A stretch of DNA of 64,000 bases from Alphaproteobacteria bacterium (GTDB taxonomy: Bacteria > Pseudomonadota > Alphaproteobacteria > UBA8366), in contig OZ245815.1 in the NCBI GenBank assembly GCA_965228425.1, forward strand, positions 3,672,095 through 3,736,094. Direction: 5' to 3'. Shown here piece after piece: positions 14,795 to 20,965 of the stretch. Position 1 is the first letter of the stretch; the number at the start of each line of letters is the position of its first letter. The notes under the pieces were generated by a model that saw only the letters and a program-made list of their open reading frames with translations, was not told the DNA's origin and did no database searches. The position numbers were made by a program, and so were the translations under genes.

Positions 14795-17017
14795 CTACCG
14801 GAACCGGTTGGTCTTCGAGAAGCCGCGCGGCACGACCCGGCCCGCCTGGGCACGCTTGCCGATCCAGTTCTCCAGCTTTGTCTCGGTCCGCGTGCGGTCA
14901 CCGATCTGCCAAGATAGGCCCTCCTCCATCGTGAAGGAGGTCACGTCGGCCAACCCGCCCTTGTTGAAGCGCTGCAGGATGACTCCGCGGCCGCGGCTCA
15001 TTTCCGGCAATTCCTCGGCGGGAAAGATCAGCAGCTTGCGGTTGTCGCCGACGACGGCCACATGGTCGCCCTTGAAGATCGCGCAGGCGGTCGCCTCGGC
15101 GCTGGCGCCGAGATTGAGCACTTGTTTGCCGCCGCGTGTCTGCGCGACGACATCCTTCTCCGCGACCACGAAGCCCCGCCCGTCGCTCGACGCCACGATG
15201 CGTTTCTGTTCCGGATCGTGCACGCTGAGCGCAACCACGTTGTGCTCGTTGCCGAGATCGATCATCAGGCTCAACGGCTCGCCGAATCCGCGCCCGCCCG
15301 GCAGCTTGTCGACGCTGATCGTGTAGAAACGGCCATTGGTGGCGAACAGGATGAGCTTGTCGGTGGTCTGCGCGTGGAAGGCGAAGCGGTGACGGTCGCC
15401 TTCCTTGTATTTCACATCGCCGAACTTCTCGAGATGTCCGCGCGCCGCGCGAATCCAACCTTTTTCGGAACACAGCACGGTTACCGGCTCGCGCTCGATC
15501 ATCGCTTCGAGCGGGATCACGACCGCCGACGGTGCGTCGCCCAACTCGGTGCGGCGGCGGCCGAGGTCGGTGTCCGGACCAAACGCCTTCTTCATCTCGG
15601 TGATTTCACCGGCGACCTTCTTCCAGCGCAGTTTCGCGTCCTTGAGCAGTTTCTTCAGGCCCTTGCGTTCCTCGGTCAGGGCGTCGTGCTCGTTCTGGAT
15701 CTCCATCTCTTCGAGCTTGCGCAAATGCCGCAAGCGCATGTTGAGGATGGCTTCCGCCTGCACCTCGGTCAGCTTGAACGCCTTGATCAACTCGGCCTTA
15801 GGATCGTCCTCTTCGCGGATGATCCGGATCACCTCGTCGAGATTGAGATAGGCGATCAGCAAACCACCCAGCACCTCGAGGCGATGCTCGATCTTCTCCA
15901 GCCGGTGCTTGCTGCGCCGGATCAACACGTCGTGCCGGTGATCCAGGAAAGCCTGCAGGACTTCGCGCAGGTTCATCACCCGCGGCGTCACGCCCTGGTC
16001 CAACACGTTCATGTTCAACGAAAAGCGCGATTCCAGATCGGTCTGCCGGAACAGGCTTTCCATCAGATGGTCCGGATCGACGTTGCGGCTCTTCGGCTCC
16101 AGGACGAGGCGGACCTCGGTCGTCGATTCGTCATGCACGTCGCCGAGCATGGTGAGCTTGCGGGCATGCATCAGTTCGGCGATCTTCTCGATCAGCTTCG
16201 CCTTCTGTACCTGATACGGCATCCCCGTGACGATCACGCGATAGCCGCCGCCCTTGATCTTCTCGACCTCATAGCTGGCGCGCACCCGGAAACTGCCGCG
16301 CCCGGTCTTGTACGCCTCGACGATGGCGTCGCGGTTTTCACACAGCACGCCGCCGGTCGGGAAATCCGGTCCGGGGATCAGGTCGACCAGCTTGGCGACG
16401 GTCGCCTTCGGGAACTTGATGAGATGCAACAGCCCGTTGCAGATTTCAGCCACGTTATGCGGCGGGATGCTCGTCGCCATGCCGACGGCGATGCCCGCCG
16501 CCCCGTTCGCCAGCAGGTTCGGGAAATTCGCCGGCAGCACGACGGGTTCGTCGCCCTCGCCGTCATAGGTGCCGCGAAAGTCGACCGCGTCCTCGTCGAT
16601 GCCCTCGAGCAGCCGCTTCGCGACGTCGGTCATGCGCGCCTCGGTATAGCGCATCGCCGCCGCGTTATCGCCGTCGATATTGCCGAAGTTGCCCTGACCG
16701 TCGACCAGCGGGTAGCGCACCGCGAAATCCTGCGCCAACCGCACCATCGCGTCGTAGATCGCCGCGTCGCCATGCGGATGATATTTGCCCATCACGTCGC
16801 CGACGATGCGCGCGCATTTCTTGAACCCGGATTCGGGATTCAGGCGCAGTTCGCGCATTGCATGCAGCAGCCGCCGGTGCACGGGCTTCAGGCCGTCGCG
16901 CACATCCGGCAGCGACCGCGCCATGATCGTCGACAGCGCATAGGACAGATACCGCTCGCCCAGCGCGTCGGCCAATGGGACCGGGCGCACCTCGCCCGTG
17001 GATTTCGCTTTCGCCAT
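14795..17017 (-). CDS. parC: DNA topoisomerase IV subunit A
   Basis: [40 protein letters not shown], and active-site [10 protein letters not shown]. The ~740-aa length fits the alphaproteobacterial ParC type. ATG at 17017 (MAKAKS...). Confidence 0.9.
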
Positions 17018-17093
17018 GTGTCCGTTCAAATCCCCCGCTCGTGAGACACGAGATATTGATAGCACGCGCGGTCATAGACGCAAGGGGTTGTGG

Positions 17094-17186
17094 TTACGCC
17101 CTGTCGCGGTCCACCTCCGTGAAATCGTCCTCGGCCGCAAAAAGCGCCTCGATGACCGGGCAAACCGCCACCGCGCCGTCTTCGCA
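17094..17186 (-). pseudogene. in-frame post-stop continuation of the MerR gene, encoding the missing C-x7-C metal loop
   Basis: My own translation of the minus strand directly after TAA (17189-17187) gives CEDGAVAVCPVIEALFAAEDDFTEVDRDRA, then TAA at 17096-17094. The C-x7-C-P-V-I-E-A-L pattern is CueR-type. GC3 stays high. Confidence 0.7.
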
Positions 17187-17537
17187 TTACTCGGCCAGCT
17201 GCCGCAACGCGCGGTCCATTCGCTCCAGATCATCGATTTTCCGCCGGATATCCCGGGCATGGGCCAACGTGATCTCCCGCACCTGCTCGCAGCTCGGCGC
17301 CCCCGCACCGGTTAGACCGAGAAGGCTGCGGATTTCATCCAGCGAAAAGCCCAGATTTCGGGCGCGGCGGATGAATACCAACCGCTTCACATGCTCCGGG
17401 GCATACAGCCGGTGCCGCCCGGCGGTCCGCGGCGGCGGGGACAGCAGCCCGATTCGCTCGTAGTAGCGGATCGTCTCGACCTTGCAGCCGGATATCCGCG
17501 ACACCTCGCCGATGGCCAACGATGTCTGTTCGGTCAT
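17187..17537 (-). CDS. MerR-family (CueR/HmrR-like) regulator, truncated at 116 aa by a TAA in front of its metal-binding loop
   Basis: wHTH LAIGEVSRISGCKVETIRYYERIGLL, then RRARNLGFSLDEIRSLL and the dimerisation helix, ending ...ALRQLAE-TAA. See the separate feature and finding for the in-frame continuation. Confidence 0.85.
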   Translation of the reverse strand: MTEQTSLAIGEVSRISGCKVETIRYYERIGLLSPPPRTAGRHRLYAPEHVKRLVFIRRARNLGFSLDEIRSLLGLTGAGAPSCEQVREITLAHARDIRRKIDDLERMDRALRQLAE

Positions 17538-17548
17538 GAATTTCGCCC

Positions 17549-17579
17549 TTGAATCTATAGTCGCTACAGATTGTATGGT
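17549..17579 (+). promoter_or_regulatory. MerR-type promoter/operator for the merF-like operon
   Basis: -35 TTGAAT (17549-17554), a 19-bp spacer, and -10 TATGGT (17574-17579). The spacer holds the dyad ATCTATAG-tcg-CTACAGAT (17553-17571, one mismatch). It sits in the divergent MerR/merF intergenic region. Confidence 0.7.
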
Positions 17580-17642
17580 GATCGCCAGCCCATTCAAGAC
17601 GGCACACAAATTTACAATGTTCTGAAACGGACCGGCCGAACC

Positions 17643-17849
17643 ATGAACAACCAATCCCTTCTGCGCACCGGCGTCATCGGAAGCACCGTCGCGGCGATCT
17701 GCTGCTTCACGCCGGCGCTGGTCATTTTGTTCGGTGCGCTCGGCCTGTCCTCGATGGTCGGTATCCTCGATTATGTGCTGCTGCCAGCCTTGGCAGTCTT
17801 CCTGGCGATCACGGGCTACGCGCTCTGGAAACGGCGGGAGGCAAGCTGA
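17643..17849 (+). CDS. merF: MerF-like mercuric/heavy-metal ion transporter (2 TM, single vicinal Cys pair)
   Basis: LLRTGVIGSTVAAICCFTPALVILFGALGLSSMVGILDYVLLPALAVF closely matches my recollection of MerF (LLRVSIIGTTLVALCCFTPVLVILLG...LDYVLLPALAIF). It ends at KRREAS without the C-terminal CC pair. Confidence 0.75.
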   Translation: MNNQSLLRTGVIGSTVAAICCFTPALVILFGALGLSSMVGILDYVLLPALAVFLAITGYALWKRREAS

Positions 17850-18067
17850 TGCACGTTTTCTCGACCCTCACCTGCCCCGACTGCGGTTACAAAAGCCTCG
17901 AAGAGATGCCGACGAACGCTTGCGTCTATTTTCACGAATGCAACTCCTGCAAGACGCTGCTCAAGCCGCAACCGGGCGACTGCTGCGTCTTCTGCTCCTA
18001 CGGCGACGTACCCTGCCCGCCGATCCAGACCGGCGGCGGATGCTGCGGCGTGGGCGAGCCGGGTTAA
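17849..18067 (+). CDS. GDCCVxC-domain Cys-rich small protein (11 Cys in 72 aa)
   Basis: CPDC...C...ECNSC...GDCCVFC...CPP...GGGCCG. Its ATG shares one nt with the merF-like TGA (TGATG at 17847-17851), consistent with translational coupling. Confidence 0.75.
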   Translation: MHVFSTLTCPDCGYKSLEEMPTNACVYFHECNSCKTLLKPQPGDCCVFCSYGDVPCPPIQTGGGCCGVGEPG

Positions 18068-18519
18068 GCCCGCTTTTCCGGCTTGCCGTGATCGTCGGTG
18101 AGACAATGATCGTGGGTGTAGTCCGACAGGACTTCGATGACGCGGCAGTCGCCGACCTGGCCGTGGCGGCAATCGTGGACCATGCGCTCCAACTCGGTTT
18201 TCAAAGCGTTCAGGCGTTCGATCCGCGCCTCCACCGCCGCCAGGTGCTCGCGGGCGATGCGGTCGACATCGGCGCAGGGGCGTTCGGGATCGTCGCTCAA
18301 CGCCAGCATTTCACGGATCTGGTCGAGCGGAAATCCCAGCTCGCGGGCATGGCGGATGAACCCGAGGCGGGCGATATGCGCCGGTCCGTAGCGGCGCTGG
18401 TTCCCGGATGTCCGTAACGGGGCCGGCATAAGGCCGACCTCCTCGTAATAGCGGACCGTTTGCACCTTACAGCCGGTTTCCCGGGCCAGAACGCCGATAG
18501 AGAGGACTTTGCCGTCCAT
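18064..18519 (-). CDS. MerR-family heavy-metal-responsive regulator (ZntR/CadR-like, full length)
   Basis: wHTH IGVLARETGCKVQTVRYYEEVGLM, Cys at RPCADV, and a C-terminal Cys/His loop HDCRHGQVGDCRVIEVLSDYTHDHC. Confidence 0.88.
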   Translation of the reverse strand: MDGKVLSIGVLARETGCKVQTVRYYEEVGLMPAPLRTSGNQRRYGPAHIARLGFIRHARELGFPLDQIREMLALSDDPERPCADVDRIAREHLAAVEARIERLNALKTELERMVHDCRHGQVGDCRVIEVLSDYTHDHCLTDDHGKPEKRA

Positions 18520-18531
18520 GTCGTTTTCCCC

Positions 18532-18562
18532 TTGAACCTACAGTCACTGTAGATATTAGGAT
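18532..18562 (+). promoter_or_regulatory. MerR-type promoter/operator for the CDF transporter gene
   Basis: -35 TTGAAC (18532-18537), a 19-bp spacer, and -10 TAGGAT (18557-18562). A perfect dyad CTACAGT-c-ACTGTAG lies at 18538-18552. Confidence 0.7.
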
Positions 18563-18611
18563 CACGTCGTAGAAAACAAGGATTGTCCGAAACTGCGCTT
18601 CCGGAGCCATC

Positions 18612-19259
18612 ATGGCGGGTTGCTGTGACCGTAACGTGACTTTCGACGGATCATCGCCGGCGTACCGGCGCGTTCTTTGGATCGTCATCGCCATCAACGC
18701 GGTGATGTTCGTCGTCGAGATGTCGGCGGGCGCCGCCGCCGGGTCGAAGGCGCTGCAAGCCGACGCCCTCGATTTCCTCGGCGACACGCTGACCTATGGG
18801 CTCAGCCTCTACGTCATCGGCAAATCGGTGCGCATGCGGGCGACTGCGGCGCTGATGAAGGGCGTTTCCCTCGCCCTGATGGGCATCGGCGTCTTGGGAT
18901 GGACGATCTATCAGACCTTCATCCTCGGTGTGCCTGACGCGATGGTGATGAGCGGCGTCGCCTTCCTCGCCTTCGCGGCCAATATAGTGTGCGCGCTGTT
19001 GCTGCTGAAGTTCCGGGACGGCGATTCGAATGTGCGCTCGGTCTGGCTGTGCAGCCGTAACGATGCGATCGGCAACGTTGCGGTGATTGGCGCGGCGGGC
19101 GTGGTCCTCCTGACCGGCAGCGCATGGCCCGATCTGATCGTCGCCGCGGCGATGGCCGCGTTATTCCTGCAGTCGTCGATCAAGATCATCCGCCAGGCGA
19201 CGACTGAGTTGCGCTTGGTGCGCGCCGACGCGGAAGCTTCCGCCGGTACTGCGGATTAG
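18612..19259 (+). CDS. cation diffusion facilitator (CDF) transporter, short form without a cytoplasmic C-terminal domain
   Basis: 6 TM. TM2 carries ALQADALDFLGD and TM5 carries RNDAIGN (site-A-like residues). N-terminus is MAGCC. The protein ends ~20 aa after TM6. Confidence 0.8.
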   Translation: MAGCCDRNVTFDGSSPAYRRVLWIVIAINAVMFVVEMSAGAAAGSKALQADALDFLGDTLTYGLSLYVIGKSVRMRATAALMKGVSLALMGIGVLGWTIYQTFILGVPDAMVMSGVAFLAFAANIVCALLLLKFRDGDSNVRSVWLCSRNDAIGNVAVIGAAGVVLLTGSAWPDLIVAAAMAALFLQSSIKIIRQATTELRLVRADAEASAGTAD

Positions 19260-20254
19260 GAGAGACCGGGCGTCCGCTCCAACGCCGCCAGGAACAGCAA
19301 CGCGCCGATCGTCACCACGAACAACGCCCCCAGCATGCCGACCCCCCGTAGGATCAACGGCTGGGCCGCGCCGTGCGCGTCAGTGGCGTGGATAATCGTG
19401 CGCCGCGCGCCGATGGCTAGCAGGCCCACGATCGAGACGGTGATCGCGACCCCGAACGCCATGGCCAGCGCGCCGAGAATTCCGACCGCATAAAGGCCGT
19501 TCGCCATGGTGAACAGCAGCAGAATGATCGCGCCGCTGCACGGCCGGATACCGGCGGCGAGCGCGGCCACGATCATATCTCGACCTTCTCGGTACCAGGG
19601 GACGTCCCCGCCCGAATGATGGTGACCGTGACTGTGTCCCTGACCATGGTGATGATCGTCGCCCGGGCCGTGTGAATGATCGCAGTCCTTGCCGCGAAAC
19701 GCGCCCCAGGCCATGTACAACCCAAGCAGGATCACCAATGCATAGCTGACGAGTTCGATGGTAACGGCGTAGCCCAACACCTGAATGCGGCCGAACCCCA
19801 TCGCGAAGACCAGGACGAAGACGATGACGATCGCCGACACGGCCTGCGTCAACGCAATCAGGCCGCTCATGATGATGCCGTGCGACACCGGGCCGTTGCG
19901 CGCCAGGAAGTAGCTGGTGACGATAAACTTGCCGTGCCCCGGCCCTGCGGCATGGAAGACGCCGTACAGGAAGGCCACGCCGATGACGATCAACGCCGGC
20001 AGAAGCGAGTCCGACGTTTCGATTTCTTTCAGCTTGGCGTGGAGGTCCTTGTTCAGGTCACGCTGCACGGCGGCGATCTTGAGCAGAAGCCCCCGATAGG
20101 ACCGCTCGAGCGCGCCCGGCGGGGTCGCCGGTGCCTCGGTTTCAGTGGCTTTCGGGGCAAACGGATTGCCCGCGTCGGACGCCTGCGCCACGCCTGCGCT
20201 CAAGACGCCGAACCCGACAACCATCAAAAAGGAAATCGCAAGGAGGCGGATCAT
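19256..20254 (-). CDS. nickel/cobalt transporter, RcnA/HoxN-like permease with a His-rich loop
   Basis: FLYGVFHAAGPGHGK motif, loop DCDHSHGPGDDHHHGQGHSHGHHHSGG, and GIRPCSGAI. The ATG at 20254 is adjacent to the DUF1007 gene stop. Confidence 0.8.
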   Translation of the reverse strand: MIRLLAISFLMVVGFGVLSAGVAQASDAGNPFAPKATETEAPATPPGALERSYRGLLLKIAAVQRDLNKDLHAKLKEIETSDSLLPALIVIGVAFLYGVFHAAGPGHGKFIVTSYFLARNGPVSHGIIMSGLIALTQAVSAIVIVFVLVFAMGFGRIQVLGYAVTIELVSYALVILLGLYMAWGAFRGKDCDHSHGPGDDHHHGQGHSHGHHHSGGDVPWYREGRDMIVAALAAGIRPCSGAIILLLFTMANGLYAVGILGALAMAFGVAITVSIVGLLAIGARRTIIHATDAHGAAQPLILRGVGMLGALFVVTIGALLFLAALERTPGLS

Positions 20255-20255
20255 C

Positions 20256-20879
20256 TCAGCTCGTTGCGCAGAGAACATCGACCTTTTTCGGAATAACCAT
20301 GTCGAAATAGATCGGGTTCTCCGCGTCGTCGCCCACCTTGAAATGACAGGCCCGGCCGCTCTCGCCGGTGAACCGCACCGGGTCCATCTCGTCATGGACG
20401 ACGGAGACATAGAAGGTTGCGTCATACACGCCGAAACTCAGCGTGCTCCGGCGCGGATCGACCGGCTCATCGAACGGAACGGTGAAGGAATAGCTGACCC
20501 GCCCATCCTTCGCGACGGCGGCAAAATCCGTAACCCGCGGCGCCGGCAGAAGCTTCCCGTCAACCCGGATATGCGTGAAATACCGCAACTCCTTCAGCGC
20601 GCTGAACGCGCCCGCCTGCAACGCTGCGATCTCGCCCTTGTGGAAGGACTTGTCCTTGTCCTTGTCGAAATCCTCGAACAGCAGGAAGCTGAAAATCTCA
20701 TCGAAAGTCCAGTGGAAGCGCAGGCCGGTGATCTTTCCGTTCTCGAACTGAACGTAGGAGACATTATCGATGAAGACATGCGGATGGGCATCCGCCGACG
20801 GCCCCGCCGCCATCGTCAGCCAGGCACCGACGACGGTGAGCATTGCGACTCGATACGCCTTTTGAAACCGATGCTTCAT
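20256..20879 (-). CDS. DUF1007-family periplasmic protein (partner of the Ni/Co permease)
   Basis: Signal peptide followed by DAHPHVFIDN...LRFHWTFDEIFS, characteristic of DUF1007. It lies immediately upstream of the permease. Confidence 0.75.
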   Translation of the reverse strand: MKHRFQKAYRVAMLTVVGAWLTMAAGPSADAHPHVFIDNVSYVQFENGKITGLRFHWTFDEIFSFLLFEDFDKDKDKSFHKGEIAALQAGAFSALKELRYFTHIRVDGKLLPAPRVTDFAAVAKDGRVSYSFTVPFDEPVDPRRSTLSFGVYDATFYVSVVHDEMDPVRFTGESGRACHFKVGDDAENPIYFDMVIPKKVDVLCATS

Positions 20880-20965
20880 GATCGACGGTACCCTATCTGC
20901 CCCACCGGAAAGTGCAAGCATGAACAAACCGGATTAATAATTGATTTATGGTGAATGCCTCGAAA

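Follow-up and report, generated by a model that had tools for sequence, protein, structure and literature searches.

A merF-GDCCVxC operon without merA in an alphaproteobacterial chromosome and the recurrent coupling of Mer importers to a cysteine-rich candidate metal acceptor

Mercury resistance in bacteria is generally taught as the import of Hg(II) followed by its reduction by the mercuric reductase MerA. Classic operons containing the importer gene merF (pMER327/419 type, with the order merR-merT-merP-merF-merA-merD-merE, as in locus L082) are good examples of this scheme. Here we describe a related locus in a 64,000 nucleotide stretch of the genome of an alphaproteobacterium of the UBA8366 lineage (GCA_965228425.1, contig OZ245815.1, positions 3,672,095 to 3,736,094; hereafter the window, in whose coordinates positions are given unless another locus is named). 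Its region 17187-18067 comprises three genes, namely a merR-family regulator on the minus strand and, on the plus strand, merF and a gene for a small cysteine-rich protein of the GDCCVxC family. The locus has in common with the classic operons a divergent MerR, a promoter with a 19-bp spacer and a MerF with the CCFTP motif (55% identical to transposon (Tn)-borne MerF), yet it lacks merA, merP, merT, merD and merE, its MerF has no C-terminal vicinal cysteine (CC) tail, and the slot directly after merF, which in them is that of merA, is taken by the GDCCVxC gene. On balance, and with modest confidence, we interpret it as a MerR-controlled, MerA-less variant of the mer operon, in which MerF would import the metal and the GDCCVxC protein would be the cytoplasmic acceptor that holds it unreduced.

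Other described systems share part of this arrangement. The merR-merT-merP locus of Tn5563-type elements, found on IncP-6 and other plasmids, is likewise devoid of MerA, controlled by MerR and terminated by a GDCCVxC gene, which follows merP after 8 bp, the whole array lying next to the transposase, but its importer consists of MerT and MerP carried on a Tn3-family transposon, whereas that of the window is a chromosomal MerF. Two published descriptions of this locus do not mention the GDCCVxC open reading frame (ORF) (PMC4785139; PMC4133298). In the IncP-6 copy of Tn5563 (L081, 2966-3700) merT is split by an insertion, of 286 bp according to PMC4785139, and both merP and the GDCCVxC gene are intact. 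Engineered strains that combine MerT/MerP with a metallothionein (Chen and Wilson 1997 onward) are reviewed in PMC6215804 as a working import and storage system. They follow the same logic, that is, import of Hg(II) and then binding by a cytosolic cysteine-rich protein with no reduction, except that theirs is an artificially supplied plant or animal metallothionein and the GDCCVxC protein is unrelated to it, with a zinc-ribbon-like half and a CC tail. NmerA and the C terminus of MerA also present a cytoplasmic thiol pair on a flexible segment (...SCCAG in MerA, ...GCCG in GDCCVxC), as predicted for the GDCCVxC protein, but the latter has neither the flavoprotein core nor the heavy-metal-associated (HMA) fold, apart from one HMA fusion described below. 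Finally, the bacterial metallothioneins SmtA/BmtA are similarly small, cysteine-rich, cytoplasmic and metal-regulated, but the GDCCVxC protein of the window, which matches no Pfam family, gave no sequence or profile match to them, and its cysteine spacing differs from theirs, with a zinc-ribbon CPxCG...CxxC pattern.

A control region of 105 bp separates the regulator (17187-17537, minus strand) from merF (17643-17849, plus strand). The TGA of merF (17847-17849) overlaps by one base the ATG (17849-17851) of the GDCCVxC gene (17849-18067, plus strand), whose Shine-Dalgarno sequence GGGAGG (17836-17841, plus strand) can be read directly within the last codons of merF, at a distance of 7 nt from the start codon. 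Both plus-strand ORFs had been delineated in an original prediction made from the sequence of the window, and their coordinates, the start of the second on the stop codon of the first and its 72 codons with 11 cysteines are as described there. The 1-nt ATGA overlap and the Shine-Dalgarno sequence (GGGAGG or GGGAAG) are kept in four relatives (L084, L169, L170 and L171), in which the order parC, merR, merF, GDCCVxC, a second merR, a cation diffusion facilitator (CDF) gene and a nearby NicO-family transporter gene is syntenic. Compared with three close relatives, merF has a ratio of nonsynonymous to synonymous substitution rates (dN/dS) of 0.07-0.15 and the GDCCVxC gene one of 0.05-0.22, and these purifying values, together with the synteny in four relatives, indicate that both are real genes and not chance ORFs. 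Both are intact and under purifying selection in this genome, and the locus, chromosomal and flanked by parC and a CDF/NicO metal island, is a typical member within its clade. Searches of all 64 kb by tblastn with MerA, MerP/HMA, MerT, MerE and MerB references recovered only merF, two merR genes (one of them also matched by a MerD reference) and negligible short matches (MerB, E=0.013 across 29 aa; MerA, E=0.91), in agreement with the earlier statement that no MerA, MerP or organomercurial lyase is encoded in the window.

The 68-aa MerF, a predicted importer with two transmembrane (TM) helices and CCFTP in the first of them, matches NCBIfam NF033565 trans_MerF over model positions 1-59 of 59 (99.1 bits; cutoff 50) and Pfam PF11431 Transport_MerF (69.2 bits; cutoff 24.3), so that its original assignment passes curated cutoffs. 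The helices are placed by hydropathy only, with Kyte-Doolittle maxima of ~2.3 at residues 16-34 and 38-56. C20 and C21, within AAICCFTP of helix 1, are its only cysteines, and the protein ends in ...WKRREAS, without the second, C-terminal cytoplasmic vicinal cysteine pair, as had been pointed out. Canonical Tn-borne MerF (81 aa) ends in ...QRKRQADACCTPKFNGVKK, the prototype C terminus being also given as ...RQADACCTPKFNGVKK; the NCBIfam model ends before this tail region. The C-terminal pair is a non-universal feature of MerF, as it is absent from 53 of 74 evaluable metagenomic MerF proteins, including 28 of the 45 that adjoin merA. According to published mutagenesis, as summarized in PMC5500634, only the first CC pair is required for transport.

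The second gene encodes a 72-aa protein with 11 cysteines (positions 9, 12, 25, 31, 34, 45, 46, 49, 56, 65 and 66; 15% of its residues), the motif GDCCVFC and a GGGCCG tail. It matches NF041374 "GDCCVxC domain-containing (seleno)protein" over model positions 1-57 of 58 (102.9 bits; cutoff 40), a practically full-length match that bears out the family named in the original prediction. NF041374 is a family defined by sequence alone, with no attached function, and a literature search found its name in no paper. All 11 cysteines are invariant in an alignment of 25 sequences; in one of 120 sequences this applies to nine of them, the tail pair C65/C66 being conserved at 90% or more, and a tail CC pair occurs in 99 of 112 domains sampled. 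With a maximum 19-aa hydropathy of 0.52 the protein has no TM helix or signal peptide and should therefore be cytoplasmic. In its AlphaFold2 (AF2) model the mean predicted confidence (pLDDT) is 84.5, dropping to ~61 and then 40 in the last ~10 residues, which bear the CC pair, suggesting that this tail is probably flexible. The N-terminal half appears to be zinc-ribbon-like, with the CPxCG...CxxC pattern found in TFIIS/Rpb9 and a single weak zinc-ribbon match in a PDB sequence-profile search (1qyp, E=0.003). A Foldseek comparison of the model with the PDB returned nothing at E<=0.001, and its weak matches, mostly zinc-binding modules of MCM helicases and ribosomal proteins, do not allow assignment to a known fold. 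The family is widespread, with 2,933 clusters at 90% identity, 3,075 clusters at 50% identity (E<=0.001), occurrence in at least 599 scanned species genomes and matches in 352 plasmid records, including clinical IncP-6-type plasmids.

The genomic neighbourhoods of GDCCVxC genes were surveyed in 80 species-genome loci, selected as the best matches to the query and not as a random sample, of which 78 could be scored. They come from Alpha-, Beta- and Gammaproteobacteria, Bacteroidota, Acidobacteria, Verrucomicrobia, Planctomycetes and one archaeal metagenome-assembled genome, and neighbours were called on our own six-frame ORFs by phmmer and hidden Markov model searches seeded from few references. 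A TM domain of the Mer superfamily is encoded within 1.5 kb, or in the same ORF, in 41 of the 78 loci and ~1.7 kb away in two more (L011 and L019); overall, ~43 of 78 (~55%) have a Mer partner in the same operon or fused. Among the partners are MerT plus MerP, accompanied by a bona fide Hg-MerR, as well as short MerT-like proteins, MerTP (NF033556, 312 bits; cutoff 180), MerF and MerC. Fusions of MerC to GDCCVxC, ~200 aa long, were recovered from L014, L027, L028, L029, L077, P0193 and P0220, and the one scanned (L014) covers positions 1-107 of the 108 of Pfam MerC (57.9 bits; cutoff 27.6). Fusions to a two-TM MerT-like protein occur in L025, L017 and P0213, and one to an NmerA-like HMA domain in L024. 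In every TM fusion the GDCCVxC domain comes after the last helix and a Lys/Arg-rich cytoplasmic end, that is, on the side where prototype MerF bears its second CC pair.

MerA, whose presence in the operon is the canonical mark of a mer system, is missing not only from the window but also from the 16 kb surrounding the locus in relative L084, and its active-site signature was found in none of the 80 GDCCVxC loci (1.19 Mb of flanking sequence, with at least 15 kb for 46 loci). The reciprocal sample, of the 80 metagenomic loci nearest to the window MerF, shows merF with an adjacent GDCCVxC gene, almost always directly downstream, in 21 cases and merF followed by merA in 45, with both present in none. 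GDCCVxC and merA are thus mutually exclusive beside merF, suggesting that the former takes the slot of the latter. The pairing of Mer transporters with GDCCVxC is therefore conserved and, given its recurrence, the fusions and the absence of MerA, the pair is not a fragment of an ordinary mer operon.

These three lines of evidence make a functional unit that replaces reduction the best reading of merF-GDCCVxC, in keeping with the import-and-sequester or hand-off module of the original prediction. In the mechanism that we propose, MerR charged with Hg would activate the 19-bp-spacer merF promoter, and MerF would move Hg(II), or a similar thiophilic cation, into the cytoplasm by way of the CC pair in TM1. 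At the cytoplasmic face of the transporter, the flexible CC tail of the GDCCVxC protein would then accept the metal through an exchange of thiol ligands, in a manner comparable to capture by the C-terminal CC of MerA or by NmerA in classic operons, and the cysteine-rich core could hold it, by sequestration or buffering, in place of its reduction.

A more specific proposal of the original prediction, a split design in which GDCCVxC supplies the cytoplasmic thiols that MerF has lost, fared less well. The C-terminal CC is absent from 20 of 21 GDCCVxC-linked MerF proteins as opposed to 28 of 45 merA-linked ones (Fisher p=0.006), but the enrichment falls to p=0.077 once nine identical transposon copies are collapsed. 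Most MerF proteins of merA operons are tail-less as well, and the absence of the tail therefore does not call for GDCCVxC as an explanation. Plasmids L085, L087 and L088 carry merR-merT-(HMA)-merF-merA with a tail-less MerF, and the MerT partners of GDCCVxC keep their cytoplasmic cysteine pair. Compensation for a lost MerF tail was accordingly rejected, and the split design is at best a weak tendency, not an explanation of the pairing. It was also observed that MerA of the alphaproteobacterial plasmid merA operons L085-L088 has no NmerA but a short N-terminal cysteine motif, MSDCC or MKDCC in the three plasmids with tail-less MerF and MSDCC, MKDCC or MKDFC over the whole set.

The hand-off version of the module would make GDCCVxC a free-standing equivalent of NmerA, a chaperone that delivers Hg(II) to a mercuric reductase, or to another thiol system, whose gene lies elsewhere in the genome. 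The likeness of its CC tail to the ...SCCAG tail of MerA and the HMA-GDCCVxC fusion of L024 are consistent with such a role, and so are observations on one strain and one plasmid: strain CECT 5344 of Pseudomonas pseudoalcaligenes has a merRTP cluster plus a separate merA operon (PMC10433974), and plasmid CP027603.1 contains a merF match and a GDCCVxC match ~7 kb apart. We nonetheless consider it fairly unlikely, because no MerA is encoded in the fetched flanks of any of the 80 loci and because the exclusivity of GDCCVxC and merA beside merF looks like replacement, not cooperation. Another suggestive arrangement is that of the Bacteroidota loci L011 and L019, ordered MerTP, a 450-aa FAD-dependent disulfide oxidoreductase and GDCCVxC; this enzyme was evaluated as a candidate MerA and discarded, as it scores 286.7 against a cutoff of 454, has a CALRGC site in place of the MerA active-site motif and lacks the C-terminal CC.

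As to the metal, the regulators of the relatives contain Cys83 plus a C-x7-C-P motif, the same triad as in merA-linked alphaproteobacterial regulators, and are 45-47% identical to those of L085 and L086. A cysteine at the start of the dimerisation helix is a hallmark of sensors of +2 ions, CueR-type sensors of +1 ions having a serine instead. The original prediction had taken the C-x7-C signature to suggest a monovalent soft metal (Cu/Ag/Au), or Hg, rather than Zn/Cd; the monovalent reading is not supported, as the third cysteine (Cys83) is shared with the merA-linked regulators and the motif itself is untranslated in the window, and a triad like that of merA-linked MerRs argues for Hg(II) rather than a monovalent ion. 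In many GDCCVxC operons the regulator matches Tn MerR at E ~1e-50 or is annotated as Hg(II)-responsive. In P. pseudoalcaligenes CECT 5344, Hg strongly induces the merP1T1R5 cluster, as determined by quantitative reverse transcription PCR (qRT-PCR) and by a MerP1 protein fold change of ~25 (PMC10433974), and the Tn5563-type locus L081 contains, without a mismatch, the sequences of three of the primers published for that cluster (two for merP1, one for merT1). From the regulator triad, the Tn MerR matches and this induced cluster, Hg(II) is the best-supported inducer and cargo, which for the window locus we infer.

A different metal (Cd(II), Zn(II), Pb(II), Cu(I), Ag(I) or Au(I)) is unlikely, although parts of the evidence would fit it. 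The best NCBIfam match of the regulator is TIGR02051 MerR, at 103.8 bits for the window protein and 125.4 bits for an intact relative, both under the cutoff of 150.85; in the relative MerR (125) and CueR (120) are in a near tie, CadR/PbrR also scoring close, and every equivalog cutoff is missed. Moreover, a second MerR regulator, a CDF exporter and a NicO/RcnA-like transporter are encoded alongside the locus in a small metal island, and in other genomes GDCCVxC genes lie directly beside efflux genes of the resistance-nodulation-division (RND; CzcA-like) or P-type ATPase type in L016, L017, L069, L074, L056 and L083, the ATPase of L083 being annotated and the others judged by eye from ORF translations. 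Against these stand the MerF itself, which exceeds an equivalog-level cutoff, the three-cysteine pattern with its dimerisation-helix cysteine, the Tn-MerR-like or Hg(II)-annotated regulators of many GDCCVxC operons and the Hg induction of the Tn5563-type cluster.

In the window itself the regulator is truncated. Its 116-aa product (17187-17537, minus strand; Pfam MerR_1, MerR-DNA-bind and MerR) keeps the winged helix-turn-helix, the dimerisation helix and Cys83 but not the metal-binding loop, because a premature TAA (codon 117; 17187-17189) directly precedes Cys118 of the C-x7-C loop. This codon is CAA (Gln) in all four relatives, each of which has a 147-aa regulator. Sequencing error was considered and ruled out: an independent Logan contig (run X1, ~158x) matches 17000-18600 with 0 differences, so that the stop codon is real at the consensus level, although minority variants can hide in contigs. 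Read-through translation of 17094-17186 (minus strand) yields an in-frame 3' remnant of merR, CEDGAVAVCPVIEALF..., in which C118 and C126 are encoded; the C-x7-C originally ascribed to the regulator is thus present in frame but lies behind the TAA, leaving C83 as the only one of the three that is translated, while the relatives keep them all. The dN/dS of this tail is 0.32-0.54 against the window and 0.39-0.42 among intact relatives, and being no higher in the former it points to a recent nonsense mutation.

A 19-bp spacer is typical of MerR promoters, and such a promoter can be read directly upstream of merF (17549-17579, plus strand), with TTGAAT as -35 (17549-17554) and TATGGT as -10 (17574-17579). 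Between them in the relatives is a perfect 8/8 dyad, ATCTGTAG-N3-CTACAGAT, conserved in the four genomes together with the same -35 and -10; the dyad of the window, ATCTaTAG-N3-CTACAGAT (17553-17571), matches at 7/8. This operator may resemble CadR/PbrR-type dyads, a likeness that would favour a metal other than Hg(II). Position 17557 is A in the window and G in all four relatives. The merF promoter was invisible to the consensus promoter scanner, which accepts spacers of 16-18 nt only, and the operator was missed by the inverted-repeat finder because of its threshold. Just downstream of the merF promoter, overlapping its -10 and the last bases of the operator dyad, a divergent sigma-70-like candidate promoter for merR, TTGAAT-16-TACAAT (17570-17597, minus strand), was identified by consensus match only. 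Mutants of MerR in the loop cysteines bind and repress but cannot activate; by analogy with them, a regulator that has lost the loop would leave the merF-GDCCVxC operon of this strain uninducible, probably locked in the repressed state.

The nonsense codon and the operator change might suggest a decaying remnant of a mer operon, which lost merA and is disappearing, and the analogous Tn5563 locus has indeed been termed "defective" or "incomplete" (PMC4785139; PMC4133298). This explanation is extremely improbable and, for the family, largely refuted: four relatives have merR-merF-GDCCVxC in synteny and with the regulator intact, purifying selection acts on merF and the GDCCVxC gene, GDCCVxC fusion proteins exist, and the family, its cysteines invariant or nearly so, occurs in at least 599 species genomes and extends over ~3,075 clusters at 50% identity.

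Several considerations weigh against import by MerF followed by retention on GDCCVxC. About 45% of the GDCCVxC loci have no Mer partner, so that the domain does not strictly need a dedicated importer, and in five Rhodanobacter assemblies (L172-L176) it is encoded 8 bp past the gene for a 533-aa amidase, with no Mer or metal genes nearby. Some of its cysteines may be structural Zn ligands and not Hg sinks, in which case storage capacity would be limited, and against high Hg a stoichiometric sink would in any event protect poorly. Profiles do not identify the inducer, since the intact regulator of a relative reaches no equivalog cutoff, the linkage of merP1 to GDCCVxC in CECT 5344 is presumed from the primer matches to L081, and the metal-binding and phenotypic roles of GDCCVxC proteins are throughout the family deduced from sequence. 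Finally, the 793-aa protein P0158, judged by eye to be a PAS/GGDEF-like signalling protein, has a complete GDCCVxC domain as its C-terminal end, a hint of a sensory role.

This last protein, the many stand-alone members in non-metal contexts and the NCBI name "(seleno)protein" would be in line with a further explanation, in which GDCCVxC is a thiol-based sensor or redox domain that gates or regulates its partner and is not an acceptor of cargo, selenocysteine (Sec) variants usually marking redox-active sites. We judge it very unlikely, given that the partners are overwhelmingly metal transporters and not enzymes or regulators, that the lone GGDEF fusion is possibly an assembly chimera, and that no Sec variant was seen among the 112 domains sampled, where no in-frame TGA interrupts the motif, in searches that required CC and from which Sec forms were thus not recoverable. 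One ...SC-TGA tail (L051) was found, with no hairpin resembling a Sec insertion sequence (SECIS; z=-0.11). While MerT selenoproteins and CU motifs are mentioned in the Haft selenoprotein preprint, the GDCCVxC family is not. Among the variant architectures, P0136 has two tandem degenerate GDCCVxC-like domains and no CC tail. In the Rhodobacterales loci L009 and L045, merF-GDCCVxC lies between msrP-like (Oxidored_molyb) and msrQ-like (Ferric_reduct) genes, and helix 1 of the L045 MerF has RC in place of CC.

Between parC and recO, the locus and the genes adjacent to it make up a small metal island. The GDCCVxC gene (plus strand) and a second merR (minus strand) share, at their stop codons, the TTAA at 18064-18067, so that the convergent genes overlap by 4 nt, as they do in L169-L171; this leaves a terminator no space and makes transcriptional interference possible. 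The region 18064-19259 contains the second MerR-family regulator (151 aa, with a Cys + C-x7-C) and, transcribed divergently from it, the gene of a short CDF exporter (215 aa), apparently the membrane domain alone. On the minus strand, at 19256-20927, a NicO/RcnA-like transporter with a His-rich loop (HSHGPGDDHHHGQGHSHGHHHSGG) adjoins a DUF1007 gene. In L084 (7414-7794) ~290 extra bp between merR and merF contain an uncalled ORF for an 89-aa thioredoxin-like protein (SCPIC; Pfam Thioredoxin_3, 32 bits), which is absent from the window and from L169-L171.

Both gene families are already catalogued, as the NCBI pipeline would name both genes automatically. What a literature search did not find described is GDCCVxC as an alternative to MerA behind Mer importers, sometimes fused to them. 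Beside import followed by reduction there is a second, very common architecture, in which a protein of ~70 aa with 11 near-invariant cysteines stands in the place of MerA after the importer. Should this protein be a natural Hg acceptor or sink, environmental and resistome surveys would come to score mer loci that lack merA differently, and the family would provide a compact natural part for Hg bioaccumulation as well as a new small metal-binding fold. The window, with its structural genes intact and its regulator just deprived of the metal-binding loop, offers a natural experiment on such an operon. More broadly, we tentatively propose, as a possibility somewhat short of even, that GDCCVxC is the missing end point of a widespread MerA-independent mercury branch, in which a docked or fused acceptor captures Hg(II) unreduced. 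If this is true, a function in the scavenging or tolerance of mercury would fall to mer loci that have been regarded as defective, among them the Tn5563 locus of IncP-6 carbapenemase plasmids and many loci on marine chromosomes.

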